From NCBI GenBank assembly GCA_037924335.1, contig JAXSMZ010000023.1, positions 8,499 to 23,544 of the forward strand: 15,046 nt of DNA. The letters run 5' to 3'. Origin of the DNA: Aquificaceae bacterium. GTDB taxonomy: Bacteria; Aquificota; Aquificia; Aquificales; Aquificaceae. The position numbers and the translations under genes were made by a program. Below, in pieces: positions 647-15,046 of this stretch. The notes beneath the pieces are model-generated. The model did no database searches, had not been told where the DNA came from, and was given only the letters and a program-made list of their open reading frames with translations. Numbering within the stretch: the first letter of the stretch is position 1; each line of letters opens with the position of its first letter.

Positions 647-686
647 AATAGTATGAAGAACTTCCCTTATTAAAAGGAGGATGCCG

Positions 687-3092
687 TTGATAGGAGAAGA
701 GTTTATAAAGATCCCAGAAATTCCAGATAGAGAGATCGAACTCCCCGTTATGCCTCTTAGAGACCTTGTAGTTTTTCCTACAATGGTCATACCCCTATTC
801 GTTGGTAGGAGTTTCTCCATAAAGGCTATAGAAGAGGCTCTAAGGAAGGATAGGCTCATATTCCTTATACTCCAAAAAGAAAGAGATATAGAAGAGCCAA
901 GCATAAATGACCTATTCAGCATAGGTGTTATAGCCCATGTAATAAGAACAGCACCCATAGAGGAGGGGAGGCTTAAGATACTCGTACAGGGGCTAAGAAG
1001 AGCGAGGATCAAAGAGTATAAAAAGTTGGAAGGATATTACTCATGCCTCGTTGACCCCATAAAGGATATTGAGATAAAACCGGAGGAAATCACAAAGGAT
1101 GATAAGGCATACATAAGCTCCCTTAAAGAACTGCTTGATAGAGCTGTGGCTCTTGGAAAGCAGATCATACCAGACATACTTATGCTGATAAAAGAACAAG
1201 AAGACATGGGTAAGCTATCGGACATAACGGCTTCCATACTTGACATAAAGTCCAAAGAGGCTCAATCTGTCCTAGAAACAACAGACCCAAGGGAAAGGTT
1301 AAGGTTGGTCCATCAGTATGCCCTTAACGAGGTGGGTCTTTTAGAAGTTCAGAACAAGATAAGGAGCATAGCAAGAGAAAGAATGGAGAGAGAGCAGAGA
1401 GAGTACTTCTTAAGGCAACAACTGAAAGCTATCCAAGAGGAGCTTGGAGAAATAGATGAAAAGAAAGCTGAAATTGAAGAGTACAGGAAGAAGCTTTCAA
1501 AGCTAAAGCTTGAAAAGGAGGTCAAGACAGAAATAGAAAAGCAGATAAACAGGCTTGAAAGGCTTCATCCAGACTCTGCCGAGGCTGGGGTGCTCAGAAC
1601 ATGGCTCGATTGGACATTAGACCTTCCTTGGAACACAAAAACGAGAGATAGGTATGATATAGAAAAAGCAAAAAAAATACTCGATAGAGACCACTACAAC
1701 CTTGAAAAGGTGAAGGAGAGGATCATAGAACACCTTGCCGTTAAGAAGCTCACAAAGGGGAAACCGTCTGCTGTCCAGATCTTATGCTTTGTTGGACCTC
1801 CTGGCGTTGGAAAAACATCCTTAGGAAAATCAATAGCCGAATCGTTGGGTAGAAAGTTTATAAGGATATCCTTAGGTGGAATAAGGGACGAAGCTGAGAT
1901 AAGAGGACACAGAAGGACATACGTAGGAGCCATGCCAGGAAGGATCATTCAGGCTGTAAAGCAGTCCGGAACTAAGAACCCTCTCATAGTGCTTGATGAA
2001 GTAGATAAGGTCTACGTATCCTTCCAAGGAGACCCAGCTGCAGCACTGCTGGAGGTTTTGGACCCAGAACAGAACAGGAGCTTTGTTGACCTATACATAG
2101 GGCTCCCCTTTGACCTTTCGGATGTTTTCTTTATATGCACTGCTAACCGTGTGGACACAATCCCAAGACCGCTTCTTGACAGGATGGAGGTGATAAACCT
2201 GACGGGATACTCGGAGGAGGAAAAGGTTTTTATAGTGAAAAATCACCTTCTTCCCAGGTTCCTCCCCCTCCATGGCTTTAAAGATGGAGAGGTGAATATA
2301 TCCGACGAGGCCATTTTGGAGATAATAAGAGGACACACAAGGGAATCTGGGGTTAGAAACCTACAGAGATACTTAGGCACAGTTCTTAGAAAGATAGCGC
2401 TAAAAAAACTGAGGGGTGAAAAGCCTCCTTTCAAGGTTGATGTCAACGATGTGAAGTCTTACCTTGGTGTTCCAAAAAGGTACCTGGAAAAGGAAGAGAA
2501 GCCTCTGATAGGTATAGCTGTAGGCCTTGCATGGACGGAGGTCGGTGGCGAGATAATGCTCATAGAAGCCACCAAGTTTAAAGGGAAAGGTGGGCTTTTG
2601 CTTACTGGTTCTTTGGGTGATATAATGAAGGAATCTGCTCAAGCTGCACTTTCTTACATAAAATCCAAATCGGAAGAGTACAGTATAAACCCAGAAGTTT
2701 TTTCCAACTACGACATACACATACATGTTCCAGAGGGTGCTGTTCCAAAAGATGGTCCATCTGCAGGCATAACCATAGCCACAGCTCTCATGTCTCTGTT
2801 CACAAACAGACCAGTTAGGATGGATGTAGCCATGACTGGGGAGGTAACCCTAAGGGGTAGAGTGCTTCCGGTGGGCGGTCTAAAGGAGAAGATCCTTGCG
2901 GCAAAAAGAGTAGGTATATACGATGTTGTACTACCAGAAAAGAACAAGGAGGAAGTTTTGGAGGACCTACCAGAGTATGTTAAGGACAAGATGACCTTTC
3001 ACTTTGTAAGTAAGCTTGAAGAAGTTTTTGAGATAGCCTTACTTTCTCAAGTACCATCAGAGAGTGTGTCCAGTTTACAGAGTTCAGTATGA
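687..3092 (+). CDS. lon: ATP-dependent Lon protease (endopeptidase La, LonA type)
   Basis: N-terminal LON domain ([13 protein letters not shown]), Walker A GPPGVGKT, Walker [22 protein letters not shown], catalytic PKDGPSAG Ser and GGLKEK Lys. SD AAGGAGG (674-680) directly abuts ATG 681, so TTG 687 (6 nt spacing) is the more plausible start; 681 is the alternative. Confidence 0.98.
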
Positions 3093-3153
3093 TAAACCCT
3101 TAGCAACCGAGCAAAAAGGCAGTATATTTTAGATGAAAGAAGGAGCTAAAAAG

Positions 3154-3449
3154 ATGAGAACCGTAAGCAAAGAGGAGTTAAAGGAGCTTTACGATAAGGA
3201 TTTCCCCCTTTGGGTGGAGATCAATCTAGAGCTTCTCAAGGAAAAGGCTTATGACCTTGTAGACTGGGAGAATCTACTTGAGGAGATAGAGGATATGGGG
3301 CTTAGACACCTTGAAAGTTGTATAAGCTACTTGGATAATGATATAGAACTTTCTAAAAAGGAACTACCAATCACTAGCCCCTATACTATGAAGAAGCTAT
3401 GGAGAGAGACTTGAGAAAGGAATTAGAGAGAGGAACAGCGGACGGTTGA
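3154..3449 (+). pseudogene. DUF29-family protein, internally deleted and frameshifted
   Basis: LYDKDFPLWVEINLELLKEKAYDLVDWENLLEEIEDMG matches the DUF29 N-terminus; SD AGGAG 3141-3145 precedes ATG 3154. The central LxHLxKW-type region is absent. After ELPITSPYT the expected helical tail (YEEAMERDLRKELERG...TGA 3447-3449) continues in a different frame; the original frame stops at 3414. Confidence 0.7.
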
Positions 3450-3474
3450 TATTTTTTGCACAAAAACATATAAT
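3446..3474 (+). promoter_or_regulatory. Strong sigma70 promoter upstream of the rpsU leader
   Basis: TTGATA (3446-3451), 17 nt spacer, TATAAT (3469-3474). Predicted start of transcription about 3481. The spacer contains TTTTTG-CA-CAAAAA (3453-3466). Confidence 0.75.
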
Positions 3475-3480
3475 TATTTA

Positions 3481-3710
3481 TAGATCTGAGAGTGAGTCAG
3501 AGAGGGTAGTTTTGGTACCCTCGAGTTCTCAAGGTAGCAGTGCTTATTTACTGTCTCCTGAGATGTAGGGGAGACCAGATAAGGGTATTGACTCCTTTTT
3601 TGGAGCTATGGCTTTCCCAAATACCGCCTGCTGGGGAATGGGAAGCCTGAAATAGGCGGGATAAAAGTACCCCAGCCAAAGCCGTACATTTTTGTGTGGT
3701 TTTGTTGACT
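3481..3710 (+). ncRNA. Candidate structured RNA or long 5' leader of rpsU (family not recognised)
   Basis: About 240 nt between the promoter and the rpsU start, with many helices: GAGTCAG/TTGACTC (3494-3500/3588-3594), GAGGGTA/TACCCTC (3502-3508/3516-3522), GTCTCC/GGAGAC (3553-3558/3570-3575), TATGGCTTT/AAAGCCGTA (3607-3615/3678-3686), GCTGGGG/CCCCAGC (3630-3636/3670-3676), CCGCCTG/TAGGCGG (3624-3630/3653-3659). Confidence 0.5.
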
Positions 3711-3722
3711 AGGTGATTTATC

Positions 3723-3923
3723 TTGGCTATAGTTGAGGTTGCAGAGAACGAACCCTTTGAAAAGGCGTTTAAGAGGTTTAAGAGGGTGGTCGAAAGGGAA
3801 GGAATCCTCACAGAAGTTAAAAGAAGACAGTTTTATGAAAAGCCAAGCGAGAAAAAGAAGAGAAAAGAGAGAGCTTCAAGGAAGAGGCTTATAAAGGCAT
3901 TGAAGAAGAAGAATATGATCTGA
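3723..3923 (+). CDS. rpsU: 30S ribosomal protein S21
   Basis: 66 aa, MAIVEVAENEPFEKAFKRFKRVVEREGILTEVKRRQFYEKPSEKKKRK, the bS21 signature. TTG start with SD AGGTGA at 3711-3716. Confidence 0.97.
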   Translation: MAIVEVAENEPFEKAFKRFKRVVEREGILTEVKRRQFYEKPSEKKKRKERASRKRLIKALKKKNMI

Positions 3924-9311: not shown

Positions 9312-9318
9312 TTACTTT

Positions 9319-9390
9319 GGGCGATTAGCTCAGAGGAAGAGCGCCATCCTCACACGATGGAGGTCGGAGGTTCAAGTCCTCCATCGCCCA
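9319..9390 (+). tRNA. tRNA-Val (anticodon CAC), CCA not encoded
   Basis: Acceptor GGGCGAT/ATCGCCC plus discriminator A; D arm GCTC/GAGC; anticodon arm CCATC-CTCACAC-GATGG; T arm GGAGG-TTCAAGT-CCTCC. Confidence 0.97.
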
Positions 9391-9391
9391 T

Positions 9392-9943
9392 TTATGGTGT
9401 GTAGACAGCTTCTATCCTTGCAGTGTGCCTACCTTGAGGGTCTAGAACTTCAGAGATTATGGAATATATAATACCTTTGTTCCCCGGCAGCAGTTTGCTG
9501 TAAGCTACTCCAGTTAAAGGATAGCCTGGTGGCTGGGAATAACCTAAGAAGCATACCCTGATCGTGTTTTGGTAAATTTGACTGGTGCCTTTTAGTCTAA
9601 AATGAATTCTAAAGGTGCATCCCAACTGAATGTTTCCCCCCTGTCCAACTATTGCTGGACAGTTGGGATTGTCGACAGACGGGGTGCCATCTGGACAGTT
9701 TCCAAGATTTGCTATAGTGTCAAAGATCCCTGAAGTTATGGCATAATTCACACCTGCAACAGCTGCCTCTTTTGCAGAAGAGAAAGTCCTTGTAGCCTCT
9801 GAGGTTTCAAAAAGTCTTGTTAGCATAAAGTAAAGTCCACCCATGAGCACAAGAATAACAACAGACGTAATAAGTACGGATACTAAAGCTACGCCTCTTA
9901 CCTTATGTTTTTCAAGGGTATGTCCACTTCTATAACCGACCAT
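9392..9943 (-). CDS. PilX-like type IV minor pilin
   Basis: Start moved to ATG 9943 (SD GGAGG 8 nt upstream). Prepilin-like KHKVRG|VALVSVLITSVVILVLMGG lacks Glu5, followed by AKEAAVAGV, as in PilX/GspK-like pilins. Last gene of the minor pilin cluster. Confidence 0.75.
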   Translation of the reverse strand: MVGYRSGHTLEKHKVRGVALVSVLITSVVILVLMGGLYFMLTRLFETSEATRTFSSAKEAAVAGVNYAITSGIFDTIANLGNCPDGTPSVDNPNCPAIVGQGGNIQLGCTFRIHFRLKGTSQIYQNTIRVCFLGYSQPPGYPLTGVAYSKLLPGNKGIIYSIISEVLDPQGRHTARIEAVYTP

Positions 9944-10818
9944 CTGTAATACCTCCAATCTGGTATGCTTGTAAGATTGCCACATGTATCGCTCAGTTGT
10001 GGAACATCCATAGCTACGCTCTGCCTTCCACCTACCTGCAGAAGCATGCAAAGCCTTAAACCTATAAGGTTATTTATATCGTCTTCTGGTTCACCATCGC
10101 CAGAACAGGTCCAGTTAGTATTATTAGGAACACAGTCTCTATACTCTATATTACCATTTTGCCCCAGTACTATATATCTCACCCTAAAATATGCCACGCA
10201 GTCCACTATAGGCTGTTGCCCATCACTTCCTACCCTTTTCATAAGCGTTTGAGTTCCATCTGCGCATAAGCGAGAAGCTGTTGGGTTTGTTCCTAAGTAA
10301 TACCGAGTTATAAAGCTATCAGGATAGGTGTTGTTATCGCCTATATCAAAAGCAAGAGTGTTTGCGCAGCTTCTTGTTATCTTTGTTATAGGTTCGAGAC
10401 AGATCCTATTTTGACTAATGGTACAAGGTCTCCCTAAGTAGTCTATAGCTTGAGTAGTTATGTTGCCATTGGCATCTGCATAACCCCAGCATCCTATGTT
10501 TGCATCCTGTCTTGTTGCCAAGCTCAAAAATCTTACCTCACTTCCAGAGATGGCAATGAGAGAGTTTCCTACATCATTTAAGTTCGTGCCGTTGTTAAGA
10601 ATCTGGAGCCTGCTTCCGTCTATGCCAAAGCCCACAGATGATAGCTCAGAAACAAGGGTAGATATAAGAAATTGAGCTTCTTGCTCGTTCTTGGCCACAA
10701 GAGCCTGAGAAGTGCCTTTTTGAAATATCTCCCTGTAAGCATAAAAGATTCCACCTGCCAGTATAAGAACTATGGCCATAACTACCAGAAGTTCCACTAA
10801 AGTAAATCCTCTTTTCAT
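9898..10818 (-). CDS. PilW-like type IV minor pilin (prepilin N-terminal cleavage/methylation domain)
   Basis: MKRG|FTLVELLVVMAIVLILAGG starts at ATG 10818, overlapping the upstream stop as ATGA. ELSSVGFG, QPIVDCVAYFRVRY and the C-terminal IPLKN are PilW-like. 306 aa. Confidence 0.85.
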   Translation of the reverse strand: MKRGFTLVELLVVMAIVLILAGGIFYAYREIFQKGTSQALVAKNEQEAQFLISTLVSELSSVGFGIDGSRLQILNNGTNLNDVGNSLIAISGSEVRFLSLATRQDANIGCWGYADANGNITTQAIDYLGRPCTISQNRICLEPITKITRSCANTLAFDIGDNNTYPDSFITRYYLGTNPTASRLCADGTQTLMKRVGSDGQQPIVDCVAYFRVRYIVLGQNGNIEYRDCVPNNTNWTCSGDGEPEDDINNLIGLRLCMLLQVGGRQSVAMDVPQLSDTCGNLTSIPDWRYYRWSVIEVDIPLKNIR

Positions 10819-11390
10819 GGCTTCCCCTTTATGAGGGTTGTGCTTGCATATTTGTATCTTCCGTCTATCGGGCTGAAGTACCATGCGGTAATGCCAAAGG
10901 CTTTGCCAGTTTCCTTTCCCTGAGGTCTTAACCTTGCTATTGTAATTCCTACATATACCCTTCTTCTTCCTAAGGTATACTGCCTGAGGGGACAAGGGCT
11001 GCAAACGGTCGTTGGACTTATAAGAAGCCATCCTGCTGTGCTTGTTGGGCTACCACTGAAACTGCTGTTATTCCCACTGTACGGATCGTAGAAGTCTGGG
11101 ATACCATCACCATCACTATCCGTAACTTCAAAGGTGCAGTTTCCAGATAAATCGCAGGAAGCGTTGTCCCACGTGTATGTGCTTGGGCTTATAAGGGTTG
11201 CATTGTAAGGCAAGCTTTCGAGATACCCAGACCAGTCTCTTATTGCCTTGCTTGCTGTATCCTTCATACGTGCATCAAGGGAAAACTTTATGTAGTTCAA
11301 AAGACTTCCCAAGAAGCCTATCATCACAAACATAAGAAGAAGCATGGCTATAAGAAGCTCTATGATGGTAAAGCCTTTACTGTGTTTCAT
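10815..11390 (-). CDS. PilV-like type IV minor pilin
   Basis: MKHSKG|FTIIELLIAMLLLMFVMIG prepilin motif with Glu5; lies between the FimT-like and PilW-like genes. Confidence 0.82.
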   Translation of the reverse strand: MKHSKGFTIIELLIAMLLLMFVMIGFLGSLLNYIKFSLDARMKDTASKAIRDWSGYLESLPYNATLISPSTYTWDNASCDLSGNCTFEVTDSDGDGIPDFYDPYSGNNSSFSGSPTSTAGWLLISPTTVCSPCPLRQYTLGRRRVYVGITIARLRPQGKETGKAFGITAWYFSPIDGRYKYASTTLIKGKP

Positions 11391-11877
11391 AGTTTATTCT
11401 CCCGTACCTGCTTATGTTTATGGTTCTTCTGCTTCCTACTTGGTTGGTCAGAGTTATAGAGCACATACCGAGCCCACAGGTCTTGCTCCTTGGATAACCT
11501 TTTTTGTCAAAAACTATTATGCCTCCACAGTTCTCATTTATAATCACTCCAGCTTCTGCTTGAAATTGCCTTGCATCCTCCCCATCGTCAAGCATACAAT
11601 TAAAATTGGCATCCTCAAAAAGGATATAGGTTTTGTTACTTATAAAAGCTACTCCCCAAGGCCTGCTCCCTTGTACGTCACTGCGCACATTTCTCCCCGT
11701 CATAGAATACATCCTTGCAGTGTTTAACACGCTTATCAGTTCATCCGTTGTAGCTTTTAGCCTTTGGTTAAGGACCAAGTTCCTGAGCCACAAGAAGGCA
11801 AAGCTGGCAAGTATGGAAAGTATGGCAATCGTTATGACTATCTCCACTGCAGTGTATCCCTTTACTTTTCTATCCAT
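11377..11877 (-). CDS. FimT/FimU (GspH-like) minor pilin
   Basis: MDRKVKG|YTAVEIVITIAILSILA, then NQRLKATTDELISVLNTARMYSM, LFEDANFN, IVFDKKGYP and INISRYGRI, all characteristic of GspH/FimT proteins. Confidence 0.88.
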   Translation of the reverse strand: MDRKVKGYTAVEIVITIAILSILASFAFLWLRNLVLNQRLKATTDELISVLNTARMYSMTGRNVRSDVQGSRPWGVAFISNKTYILFEDANFNCMLDDGEDARQFQAEAGVIINENCGGIIVFDKKGYPRSKTCGLGMCSITLTNQVGSRRTINISRYGRINYETQ

Positions 11878-14800
11878 ATCAAGAACCTACCCTCGTATTG
11901 TGTTGCCTGTTGCATCCGAAGCCTTAAAATAGCACCTGTAGAAACTTGTAGGAAGGTCTCATATTCCTTGCTTGAACCAGCAACCACTTGGAAGGGCATG
12001 CCCAAAGGTGGGACGCCAGTTCCAATATTAACGCTCTGTTTTACCTGCCCACTTATAACGGCTTCGGGTGCTAGAATGGTTGGCCTTGGGAAGGGAGTTC
12101 CTGTCTTGAAATACAAAGAGTAAAGCTTAGAGCTACCTTCCATAGAGCATATGTCCTGAGGTAGCACTGCTGAAAGAGTGTTTACAGTTCCACCAAAGAC
12201 AAGGGGCTGGGAGTATATGGCTTCGTTAGTAAGTCTTATGTACCAACCAACGGATGGCTCTGTAGGCAAAGGTCCAGAAGCTTCCGTGACAACATCCCGA
12301 TTGCTGCAACCGTTACTGTCGCATATACACATCTGTTTTGTCTGCGTGACCGTTACAGATGTTGTTTGACCTGTGACATCCGTCAGACTGGCAAAGTTCA
12401 CCGTGTTGCCTGATTGCCAATCGTGTTTAAAACCTATCAGATAGTTTTGGTAACCTATGCTTTTGTCAGCAAGGCTCAGGTACTTTCCTGTACCTGCAAA
12501 AACCCAGAAGTTATTGTTTTCATCCAAGGTATAAGCTGGTGCCCCAAAGAATGGGGCGCTGGTAAGGTTAAGGGCCTGACTCACACTCCAGTTTGAAAAG
12601 TTAAGCTTCATCAAAGAACCGCAGTTGCTTCCGTATACACCAAAGTATGCCACATCGTCGCTGTAATCGTTGTTTACATCCACAGGCATTATGTCCCCTA
12701 CTGCAATTTTGTTGCATCCAGGAATGTTTGGTACATTAACAGGAGTAGCTCCATTACTTCCATCGTTTAACTTAAAGACATAGATCTTTGCACTGTTAGC
12801 AAACGTCTCTCCAATGGCTGAGTCTATGCTTTGTGGACCAGTTCCAACAAGAACATACCAATTGTCCCCCACTTTGGCAATGGCTGGGAAGGAAAGAGTA
12901 AGTGTTGTGTCAGGAAGAGGCTTTTCCCAAAGGAGCTGTGGTGTACCAGAAAGGTTGCCGTTCAGCCAATCTGTCAGGTCAAGAACAAAGACAGAGGAGC
13001 TAAAGGGTTCAGAAGAAGATGTTGTTATTGCTTTCCCACCAAAGCCCATGGCACCCACCAAGAGAGTACGCCAGTTGCTTCCTATCTTTGCGTCAAAGAT
13101 CATAACCCTGTAATCAACCGTTGGCACATGACAGTACTGAGGATTTCCATACCAAAGAAGATAGGGAAGAGCATACTTTGGTATAAAGGCAAACTCCTCC
13201 ACACCTACAAAATCAGAACCAGGATCGCTCTTAGAATTGACAAGCTTTACTGGTTTGTCTGGGTCACCTGTATCTTGAAGGTATCCTACCCTGAATATGT
13301 GAAGCATGCCATCGTTGGCAGACACAGCCACTATAGTTGGCCTGTTCTTGTAAGCATTTCCAGAGATATACCCTAGATAGGTTGCATCTCCGTACTTGAG
13401 ATGATAGTTGTTTAATGGGTCCGGTCCAGCCACCGCTGGGCTTGAGTTTATTATGTCCCCAAGCTTCCAAACCTTGTTTCCACTTAAGCCTACTGCTTGG
13501 CAGAACTCAGAAGCATCAAGAGTTCTAGGTCTTTGCACGTAGGCATAGGATGTACATCCAGAAGGATTATCCTCTCCCCTTATGTACCTTATGATACAGC
13601 TGGCATCTGCTGGAATGCATGTATTACCCCCACAATCACCGTTGTTGGTACAAAGTATGCTTGGGTTGTTGGAACATACCTTCCAGATGTTTGTAAAGTT
13701 GCTTGCCTCCCCTGTGGTAAAGGATGTGAGAGTTCCATCCTTGTTATAATATATCTTCCTTTGGGATGGGTCTATTTCTGCAAGCTTGCATCCGCTGTCA
13801 AAGACAGGTCGGACCTCGTCCAATCGCTCTGTAACGCTTGAAGTACATGTTTCTACGTTGTCTATTAAGGATGCCATGGTTTGGTTTTGGTTACTATCAA
13901 AGAAGAGTTGAAAGATCCTGTCTATAACACTTCCAGCAATGTTTAGAACTTTGCTATCTACAGTATCCTCCCTTAGGTTCTGCTTTGTATCTATCCAAAA
14001 ACTCCTGAGGAAACCGAGCCACCTTAGTTCCACATTAAGTGTTGGATAGGTTGGCCTAAAGTAAGGCTGTATGACAACTTGAGAGGCTTGAGACCTTCCA
14101 GAAAGAGTTGCAACTGTAGAACCAGAAGAAGCTCTTTTAAGTATGTCGGCAAAGGCGGAAAGAAGGGCGTTCTTTAAGCTTTCAGCATCATCCGCTTCAT
14201 AAAAGTTATAAGGAAGGCCATCCTTGGGTGATTGAAAGGCTGTATCCCACTCCGCACACTTTTGATCCCAGTTGTTAGGAGGATTGCACTGGGGAAGGGG
14301 ATAAGTCACACCTCTACTGTTGCAATAGGTAGTTGAAGTCGTTTGAATATTAGTTCTTACAGTATACTCAAGGGAAGAGCAAGTTCCACTTCCATCTGGG
14401 TATTGAATACCAGTAAAGGGGAAGGGCCAAGTGTTGTTATCTCTGTCTTCAAAGCCACCAAAGATGGCGGTAGTTATCATAGCCTGCCTTCCCTGAAGCT
14501 TTGTTGAAGGGTCTAAATCTCCAAAGGCGTAAACTGCGTATGTATAAACATTTTGCTTTCCAGATAGGTCGCTTCTGAGGTCCTGCGTCGCCATAATACG
14601 GGCTGGCACAACTGGGTCTACACTGCCATTCCAAGCACCATCTGAAAGCAGTAAAACAAAACCCTTTCTACAAGGCACAGGATAGCTGTTTCCTCCAGAA
14701 CCATCATAGTAAGGGTCCACATTTCCATTTCCTCTATTTATGTAGGCTGAATTTGCTTCATAAGCATGGTCGTTACTTTGCTTATAAAAGTCATAGGCTT

Positions 14801-15046
14801 CCCACAAAGCCTCCCCTGTAGGTGTGCCCCAGTAAGGTTGTTCATTGTTTATAGTACTAATCAGGCTTGCAAGGGTAGTATTTTTACCAGCTTTTATCTC
14901 TCCATATCTTCCATCACTTGCAAAAACCATAAACTCCATAATGAGCTGGCACTTCTCATTGACCTGACCGTTCAAGTCAGAGGTATCACAAAAAGAATGG
15001 ATGATTCCTCTTATGGAGTTTGGGTCAGAGGGTCTTATCTTAATCT
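11862..15046 (-). CDS. pilY1: PilY1/PilC-type type IV pilus tip adhesin (5' end outside the window)
   Basis: Frame stays open from 14975 to the window edge (IKIRPSDPNSIRGIIHSFCD...). vWA-like elements (GTPTGEALWEA, CRKGFVLLLSDG, VYTYAV) precede a PilC-type beta-propeller (WKLGDIINSSP, SANDGMLHIF, EEFAFIP, WRTLLVGAMGFGG, WVFAGTGKYL, GWYIRL). Ca-loop-like DVNNDYSDD. Directly upstream of four minor pilins. Confidence 0.92.
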   Translation of the reverse strand, partial: IKIRPSDPNSIRGIIHSFCDTSDLNGQVNEKCQLIMEFMVFASDGRYGEIKAGKNTTLASLISTINNEQPYWGTPTGEALWEAYDFYKQSNDHAYEANSAYINRGNGNVDPYYDGSGGNSYPVPCRKGFVLLLSDGAWNGSVDPVVPARIMATQDLRSDLSGKQNVYTYAVYAFGDLDPSTKLQGRQAMITTAIFGGFEDRDNNTWPFPFTGIQYPDGSGTCSSLEYTVRTNIQTTSTTYCNSRGVTYPLPQCNPPNNWDQKCAEWDTAFQSPKDGLPYNFYEADDAESLKNALLSAFADILKRASSGSTVATLSGRSQASQVVIQPYFRPTYPTLNVELRWLGFLRSFWIDTKQNLREDTVDSKVLNIAGSVIDRIFQLFFDSNQNQTMASLIDNVETCTSSVTERLDEVRPVFDSGCKLAEIDPSQRKIYYNKDGTLTSFTTGEASNFTNIWKVCSNNPSILCTNNGDCGGNTCIPADASCIIRYIRGEDNPSGCTSYAYVQRPRTLDASEFCQAVGLSGNKVWKLGDIINSSPAVAGPDPLNNYHLKYGDATYLGYISGNAYKNRPTIVAVSANDGMLHIFRVGYLQDTGDPDKPVKLVNSKSDPGSDFVGVEEFAFIPKYALPYLLWYGNPQYCHVPTVDYRVMIFDAKIGSNWRTLLVGAMGFGGKAITTSSSEPFSSSVFVLDLTDWLNGNLSGTPQLLWEKPLPDTTLTLSFPAIAKVGDNWYVLVGTGPQSIDSAIGETFANSAKIYVFKLNDGSNGATPVNVPNIPGCNKIAVGDIMPVDVNNDYSDDVAYFGVYGSNCGSLMKLNFSNWSVSQALNLTSAPFFGAPAYTLDENNNFWVFAGTGKYLSLADKSIGYQNYLIGFKHDWQSGNTVNFASLTDVTGQTTSVTVTQTKQMCICDSNGCSNRDVVTEASGPLPTEPSVGWYIRLTNEAIYSQPLVFGGTVNTLSAVLPQDICSMEGSSKLYSLYFKTGTPFPRPTILAPEAVISGQVKQSVNIGTGVPPLGMPFQVVAGSSKEYETFLQVSTGAILRLRMQQATQYEGRFLIWIEK

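Follow-up and report, generated by a model that had tools for sequence, protein, structure and literature searches.

Organization of the rpsU locus

The window, meaning the whole 15,046-nt stretch of the Aquificaceae contig that was analyzed, contained on its forward strand lon (681-3092; Pfam Lon_C/LON_substr_bdg), a truncated DUF29 gene (3133-3414; PF01724, covering positions 1-50 of a 138-position profile) and rpsU, encoding bS21 (3723-3923; PF01165). In most relatives examined, lon is directly upstream of rpsU. Farther downstream, a tRNA-Val(CAC) (9318-9391, +) adjoined a minus-strand cluster (9392-14975) of prepilin-like ORFs and a 1037-aa ORF resembling a pilus adhesin, labels that were read from the translations. 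A perfect match to a TTGACA-17-TATAAT promoter was located at 22-50 on the minus strand.

The initial annotation had described a structured RNA of about 240 nt in two domains between a strong promoter and rpsU, and had read it as an rpsU leader or an independent small RNA. Several parts of this description were borne out: the sigma70-type promoter TTGATA-17-TATAAT (3446-3474, +; 11 of 12 consensus positions; start predicted near 3481), the TTG start codon of rpsU at 3723, and the G+C content of 3491-3686 (49.0%, as claimed; 42.4% in the genome). The interval is also structured, as had been proposed. The fold of 3481-3722 had a z-score of -2.83, with 1 of 200 shuffles equally stable, and the minimum free energy (MFE) structure contained the predicted hairpin GAGGGTA/TACCCTC (3502-3522, +). 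In a contig from sequencing run X8 this hairpin had six changed loop positions and an insertion of 2 nt, and none of the listed differences fell in its stem. The proposed closing helix of domain 1, GAGTCAG/TTGACTC, was present in the MFE structure but absent from the centroid structure; folded alone, domain 1 gave z = -2.27. The helix proposed to close domain 2, TATGGCTTT/AAAGCCGTA, is complementary in the window copy, but in the alignment of relatives its strands belong to two different helices (P1 and P4, below).

The interval 3481-3722 had no match at E<=5 among 4227 Rfam models, including RAGATH-18, IS605-orfB motifs, riboswitches, ribozymes, 6S RNA, RNase P RNA, SRP RNA and tmRNA. The initial annotation had noted that hallmark motifs of the last three and of common riboswitches are missing; ARAGORN returned the tRNA-Val only. 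No intron model matched within the window. A minus-strand ORF of 87 aa (3548-3811) had no Pfam match, and a second promoter-like match was located at 3705-3733.

A predicted three-helix knot upstream of rpsU

The structured RNA was about 100 nt long rather than 240 nt. It comprised three mutually crossing helices, P1, P2 and P3 (strand order a-b-c-a'-b'-c'), followed by a hairpin, P4, and occupied approximately 95 nt (3610-3704, +). P1 pairs 3610-3619 with 3639-3647 and has one bulged U in the window copy, the nearly invariant P2 pairs 3624-3629 with 3654-3659, and P3 pairs 3630-3636 with 3670-3676. A conserved A-rich joiner, identified from joiner counts, occupies 3660-3669, and P4 is a subterminal hairpin of variable sequence (3677-3704). 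The nested fold of 3606-3716 was unremarkable (z = -1.53) because the conserved structure is pseudoknotted.

Each helix was assessed separately. P1 was assigned from an alignment-free duplex test, in which each of 101 copies paired with its own partner strand over a median of 10 bp and with the partner strands of other copies over a median of 4 bp; on the MAFFT alignment P1 is out of register and was only 64.8% paired. P2 was paired in 95.5% of cells among 77 sequences, and one pair had a double change, the same double change occurring again in copies of the closed genome G072; the patterns used to collect copies favor the P2 sequence. P3 was paired in 99.6% of cells, with double changes at seven of seven pairs in the same 77 sequences. 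P4 had a mean MFE of -13.4 kcal/mol (-5.6 kcal/mol when shuffled) over 101 copies. The covariation score was 0.286, as compared with 0.124 for shuffles, which ignore relatedness, and at most 0.173 for slid controls. Sequence comparison thus indicates compensatory changes in all three crossing helices, and we infer that P1, P2 and P3 would form at once. Compensatory changes also preserve P1 among orthologous copies, for example those that precede one protease-like gene in roughly a dozen genomes.

An IS607 remnant in the rpsU Shine-Dalgarno sequence

The region 3434-3713 is almost certainly an internally deleted element of the IS607 family (tnpA/tnpB), inserted at the GG of the rpsU Shine-Dalgarno sequence. 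The evidence begins with an empty site. In a genome of the same genus (G032), lon was followed by a -10 box and then by GGAGG|TGATTTATC-TTG, and the window reads GACTAGG|TGATTTATC-TTG, with the sequence from 3714 onward common to both. The right junction was therefore placed after 3713, and the empty site defined a GG core there (3712-3713), as in IS607 elements. The right end itself, GACTAGG (3705-3713, +), resembled the GACCAGG-like ends of intact elements.

A degenerate left end carrying the promoter was recognized at 3434-3480 (+) with a profile of 23 element left ends. This segment was the top score among 58,334 TTG sites and 161 consensus-like promoters of the genome, at 19.1 (median of the 23 left ends themselves, 44.6). 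GGAGG preceded 20 of the 23 relatives' left ends, although the selection pattern itself required a G-rich flank. The left junction is approximate because the native left flank of the window has been replaced by the truncated DUF29 gene. That gene is internally deleted (the contig from run X8 has 327 letters in place of the window's 76 at 3334-3411), and its membership in the element is not established.

What had been called domain 1 was an eroded 3' coding end of tnpB (3487-3609, +), matched by blastn to tnpB tails at other loci (L009, L042 and L038-L041). Its local alignment to the tnpB 3' end scored 68, and the maximum in 1000 shuffles was 42.5. The remnants ESESERV and RVLKVAV lie in different frames of the translation. 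Domain 1 presumably corresponds to the 5' portion of the scaffold of the guide RNA of the element. The whole interval, promoter included, thus appears to derive from an IS607 element, an origin that the initial annotation had not considered.

Within this assembly no cognate tnpB and no IS607 tnpA above the cut-off were found; its 11 TIGR01766 matches were to other TnpB families unrelated to the element. Further fragments of related tnpB tails were present on contigs C28, C32, C30 and C1. The contig from run X8 carried the same remnant as the window and, among the differences listed, had at least 17 substitutions in 3481-3600 and none in 3605-3676. A metagenome scan for compact variants like that in the window gave two matches, both due to chance and with no motif downstream. 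The remnant in the window would be an intermediate stage in the erosion of the element to a bare leader.

Intact parent elements

Some copies of the motif overlapped the 3' end of an ORF of about 545 aa of the TnpB type (TIGR01765/TIGR01766), in which the RuvC D-E-D motifs were present and CxxC was missing (i.e., without a zinc finger). In these intact relatives tnpB reads through the RNA motif, whereas all that is left of it in the window is a 3' piece with frameshifts. At locus L119, an IS607 TnpA was encoded directly upstream of tnpB (NF033518, 223.7 bits; cut-off 110), and the right end was the same as that of the window. A serine-recombinase TnpA with an N-terminal helix-turn-helix was found at L119 and related loci and was missing from the window. 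Based on its position, we infer that the motif RNA may act as a guide RNA (omega/reRNA) of TnpB.

Intact elements were typically preceded by GGAGG, started with a conserved left end with a -35 box of the TTGACA/TTGCTA type, and had ACCAGG as their last bases. Their first ORF started about 50-160 nt past the left end, and tnpB ran into the right end, which in 18 of 19 elements was located 1-9 nt before a host start codon. Shine-Dalgarno-like sites made up 514 of the 3960 GGAGG sites (13%) in the genome of the window. The bias toward Shine-Dalgarno sites may reflect either targeting or survival.

The knot itself was variable among elements. Loci L173-L175, compared with L176, had cleanly lost the P2 and P3 strands and kept P1 and P4, and elements at L185-L191 were without P1-P3 altogether. 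Two element lineages without P2 and P3, nested among knot-bearing ones, stay multi-copy, and the knot is therefore not needed for transposition; what hosts keep is what the transposon can do without. Elements without the knot also insert at Shine-Dalgarno-like sites and persist. A blast search for standalone remnants of the knot-less right end gave five matches in three of five genomes, a search too insensitive to use.

Other occurrences were observed beside these. A sister TnpB clade (L038-L041, in genomes G050 and G049) was without the knot and had short inverted ends, GGGTGTT...AACACCC, with flanking TGA, which suggests that it is carried by a terminal-inverted-repeat element rather than by an IS607 element. 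An element right end with the motif was located on a 173-kb viral contig (L274:480-760). Three copies of the motif were found within about 3.5 kb on one GTDB contig (L101-L103), two of them after repeated upstream DNA.

Distribution of the motif and of standalone copies

When the 148 genomes of the order were searched at the DNA level, 61 gave matches, nearly all to 3602-3716 and often several per genome. A covariance model built from 77 copies, with hits counted up to a limit of 25 per genome, matched 111 of the 148 genomes. The model hit two places in the genome of the window, and in the closed genome G072 it hit 35. Scanning GTDB for exact patterns gave 81 stretches, mostly from Aquificota; the other holders were Thermosediminibacterales, Thermodesulfobacteria, Caldicoprobacter, and an Archaeoglobaceae record.

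The expected conservation upstream of rpsU was not observed. Among the 86 of 90 family genomes in which rpsU was found, 51 loci were examined, and the motif was present at two of these (the window and G072) and missing from 49. An autoregulatory leader of a ribosomal protein would be kept at, and confined to, the orthologous gene; this motif was neither. The reading as a leader was therefore retained in part: the RNA is real, uncatalogued and probably cis-acting, but the tie to rpsU and bS21 did not stand, as the motif also precedes dozens of unrelated genes.

In total, 73 of 101 non-redundant copies had no tnpB tail upstream (standalone copies). The terminal ACCAGG was lost in 66 of the 73, and their 5' flanks shared no left end. 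A gene in the sense orientation followed 95 of 99 copies (random positions, 15%; antisense side, 20 of 99). The P1-P4 module stops some 15-20 nt short of the start codon of the host gene. Genomes G019 (18 copies) and G083 (three copies) had no TIGR01766 match. The second copy in the genome of the window preceded a DJ-1/PfpI gene, where genome G033 has a full tnpB element, so that the same gene is found in two states: with the full element and with the bare motif.

G072, with 35 copies, had no cognate TnpB and no IS607 TnpA above the cut-off, and held other, unrelated TnpB genes. All of the 30 copies examined in G072 abutted a start codon. For 22 of the 30, an upstream ORF on the same strand lay no more than 22 nt away, so the module is not confined to 5' ends. 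Of the 30 motif-led genes, 12 had roles in translation or transcription or encoded Hfq; the 30 included: rpsK, rpsR, rpsT, rpsU, rplY, rpmF, rpoA, infC, tsf, rho, and two hfq genes. Both hfq paralogues of G072 were motif-led (L218, L219), as were two neighboring heterodisulfide-reductase-like genes with nearly identical copies (L237, L245). Selection at each locus need not account for the variants that G072 copies have in common, which could also have arisen by bursts or by gene conversion.

Shine-Dalgarno strength of motif-led genes

In the window, the insertion left a hybrid Shine-Dalgarno sequence, AGGTGAT (3711-3717, +), made up of AGG from the element and TGAT from the host. Its predicted energy was -10.0 kcal/mol, as compared with -10.7 kcal/mol for rpsU in G072 and -13.3 to -20.3 kcal/mol for 49 motif-free orthologues; rpsU in the window keeps a usable 7-nt Shine-Dalgarno sequence.

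Across G072, 25 of 26 motif-led genes had a weaker Shine-Dalgarno sequence than the motif-free orthologue in the genome of the window (median -6.6 vs. -11.5, p 9e-6), and control neighbors were weaker in 19 of 37 cases by the same test. Four of the 30 rows were dropped from this comparison, one each for: motif in both genomes, no orthologue, low identity, and no usable start. Compared with other ORFs of the same loci, the motif-led genes of G072 were no weaker (median -6.6 in both, 30 vs. 62 ORFs, p 0.81), and they may be adequately translated without help. The weak Shine-Dalgarno sequence follows mechanically from the insertion and is no proof of compensation.

Proposed mechanism and alternatives

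An IS607 element recombined into the GG of the GGAGG Shine-Dalgarno sequence of rpsU and subsequently lost nearly all of its coding DNA; the promoter-bearing left end, a shortened 3' piece of tnpB and the right end remain. For the function of the remnant, the following mechanism is proposed. The insertion would part the host gene from its strong Shine-Dalgarno sequence and leave AGG only. Acting in cis on the mRNA, the knotted module would keep translation initiation efficient, in the simplest form as a loading or standby structure for 30S/bS1 that in addition leaves the region around the start codon free of pairing. The host could thereby tolerate insertions in front of highly expressed genes, and later deletions would strip all but P1-P4, the module being a stopping point that persists as a host leader. 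A full-length bS1-like gene, scoring below the family cut-off, was present. Binding of S1/30S by the standby pseudoknot of tisB is a precedent (PMC7708055), while the best-known claimed IRES activity in bacteria, that of the IGR IRES in E. coli, needed no tertiary structure (PMC9458429).

Two versions of this proposal are held with different confidence. The chances appear evenly balanced that a transposon-borne RNA acts in cis to support translation of a gene with a split Shine-Dalgarno sequence and has been repeatedly domesticated. A broader version is offered more tentatively, as a conjecture with roughly one chance in three of holding: a transposon that lands in ribosome-binding sites would bring its own three-way-crossed, 30S-recruiting initiation RNA to reduce harm, hosts would have domesticated this RNA many times, and initiation at tens of core genes (ribosomal proteins, rpoA, infC, tsf, rho, hfq) would, in some thermophiles, run through it and not through a strong Shine-Dalgarno sequence.

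Given the same origin, the module might instead be an element of mRNA stability or processing, which protects the downstream cistron, or sets its 5' end, once the guide RNA has been excised from the transcript. This appears unlikely, though it has the best claim among the alternatives. A very stable knotted fold in thermophiles would fit it, as would the -10-like hexamer found within 30 nt upstream of 24 of the 73 standalone copies (background, 8%) and the processing of IS607 guide RNAs from the tnpB transcript (PMC10711439). Against it, many copies are intercistronic, stability would not require a short and constant distance to the start codon, and RNase J (TIGR00649; one family, searched in one genome) was not above the cut-off in the genome of the window, with a best score of 20.8 bits. 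The RNase J result also makes it less likely that the module is an exonuclease-resistant RNA that blocks this 5'-3' exonuclease.

Somewhat less probable is a reading of the copies as mini-elements that are not autonomous, or as orphan scaffolds of guide RNA, of no benefit to the host, with structure kept by TnpA/TnpB in trans or by recent bursts or gene conversion. Internally deleted copies with both ends do exist (L009, L111 and the window), P1-P3 differ very little among several of the G072 copies, G072 and the genome of the window have unrelated TnpB genes, and another IS607 TnpB requires its pseudoknot (PMC10711439). Against this reading, the terminal ACCAGG is missing in 66 of 73 standalone copies, whose 5' flanks have no common left end. 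The motif-bearing genomes G019 and G083 had no TIGR01766 match, elements without P2 and P3 are multi-copy, and P1 is preserved by compensatory change in orthologous copies, all of which also argue against it.

A conformational switch responding to temperature, Mg2+, a metabolite or a protein, with the pyrimidine-rich 3' strand of P3 alternately masking the Shine-Dalgarno sequence, is improbable to a slightly greater degree. The position of the module and the invariant bases of P2 and the joiner resemble riboswitch aptamers, and a helix between the 5' strands of P1 and P4, the one first proposed to close domain 2, is possible in the window copy; that helix is not conserved, however, the downstream genes have no pathway in common, and no Rfam model matched. 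The original reading, in which bS21 binds an autoregulatory leader specific to rpsU or the RNA is an independent small RNA, has the promoter and structure directly before rpsU and the motif-led rpsU of G072 in its favor, but is already largely refuted and very improbable given the 49 of 51 rpsU loci without the motif, the dozens of other genes that it precedes in sense (95 of 99) at a fixed spacing, and the failure to find a terminator-like site between motif and rpsU in the window.

If the broader version of the proposal holds, the knot would do for translation what the self-splicing intron does in IStrons. The natural series of empty site, intact element, partial remnant and bare leader lends itself to tests of how a selfish element offsets damage to a ribosome-binding site, and the motif bears on the question whether bacteria natively use structure-driven initiation. 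As a candidate for an unusual pseudoknot topology, the motif is also compact and thermostable.

Comparison with known systems

The intact elements share with known IS607 elements a TnpA serine recombinase, TnpB, a GG core at the right end and probably at the left end, a scaffold with GG as its last bases at the right end, a G/A-rich target and a pseudoknotted right-end RNA. A GG core and a scaffold ending in GG were described for CboIStron (bioRxiv 10.1101/2023.11.20.567912), target motifs AGGAG or GAGGG were reported in PMC11061315 (ISFba1/RAGATH-18), and a pseudoknotted right-end RNA was reported for ISXfa1 (PMC10711439). The elements described here differ in that their TnpB of about 545 aa is without CxxC and their RNA matches no Rfam model, RAGATH-18 included. 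Their insertions are almost all at Shine-Dalgarno sites and they carry no group I intron. In addition, some elements do without the knot, which survives as a leader once the element is gone.

REP/REPIN and Correia-type repeats are likewise short, structured, derived from mobile elements and scattered between genes, where they affect mRNA, but they are palindromic and mostly flexible in orientation. The present motif is instead found in sense (95 of 99), proximal to start codons and pseudoknotted.

L-type pseudoknots consist of three mutually crossing stems with the strand order a-b-c-a'-b'-c'. The predicted fold of the motif is like them in strand order, a likeness of topology only that implies no family relationship. 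Genus-1 pseudoknots of the L type have been named as exotic (PMC4708108).

The standby pseudoknot of tisB likewise forms in a 5' region, ahead of a site that initiates poorly, and was proposed to load 30S/S1 (PMC7708055). In that case a single toxin mRNA carries a simple pseudoknot, about 100 nt away from the sequestered site (PMC7708055), whereas the transposon-derived motif has a three-helix crossing about 40 nt upstream of many genes, and S1 binding by it is hypothetical.

Neither the motif nor its fate as a leader was found in Rfam or in the literature searched, which lay largely outside subscription journals. The accessible text of Lechner 2014 (PMC4227106) makes no mention of transposons or leaders. 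PMC8632094 screened genomes of Hydrogenobaculum and Thermodesulfobacterium, two genera with the motif, and its Supplementary File 1 may list the motif unnamed. IS607 elements and the RNA at their right end are known from earlier work; the motif described here, with its recurrent survival as a leader, appears to be new.
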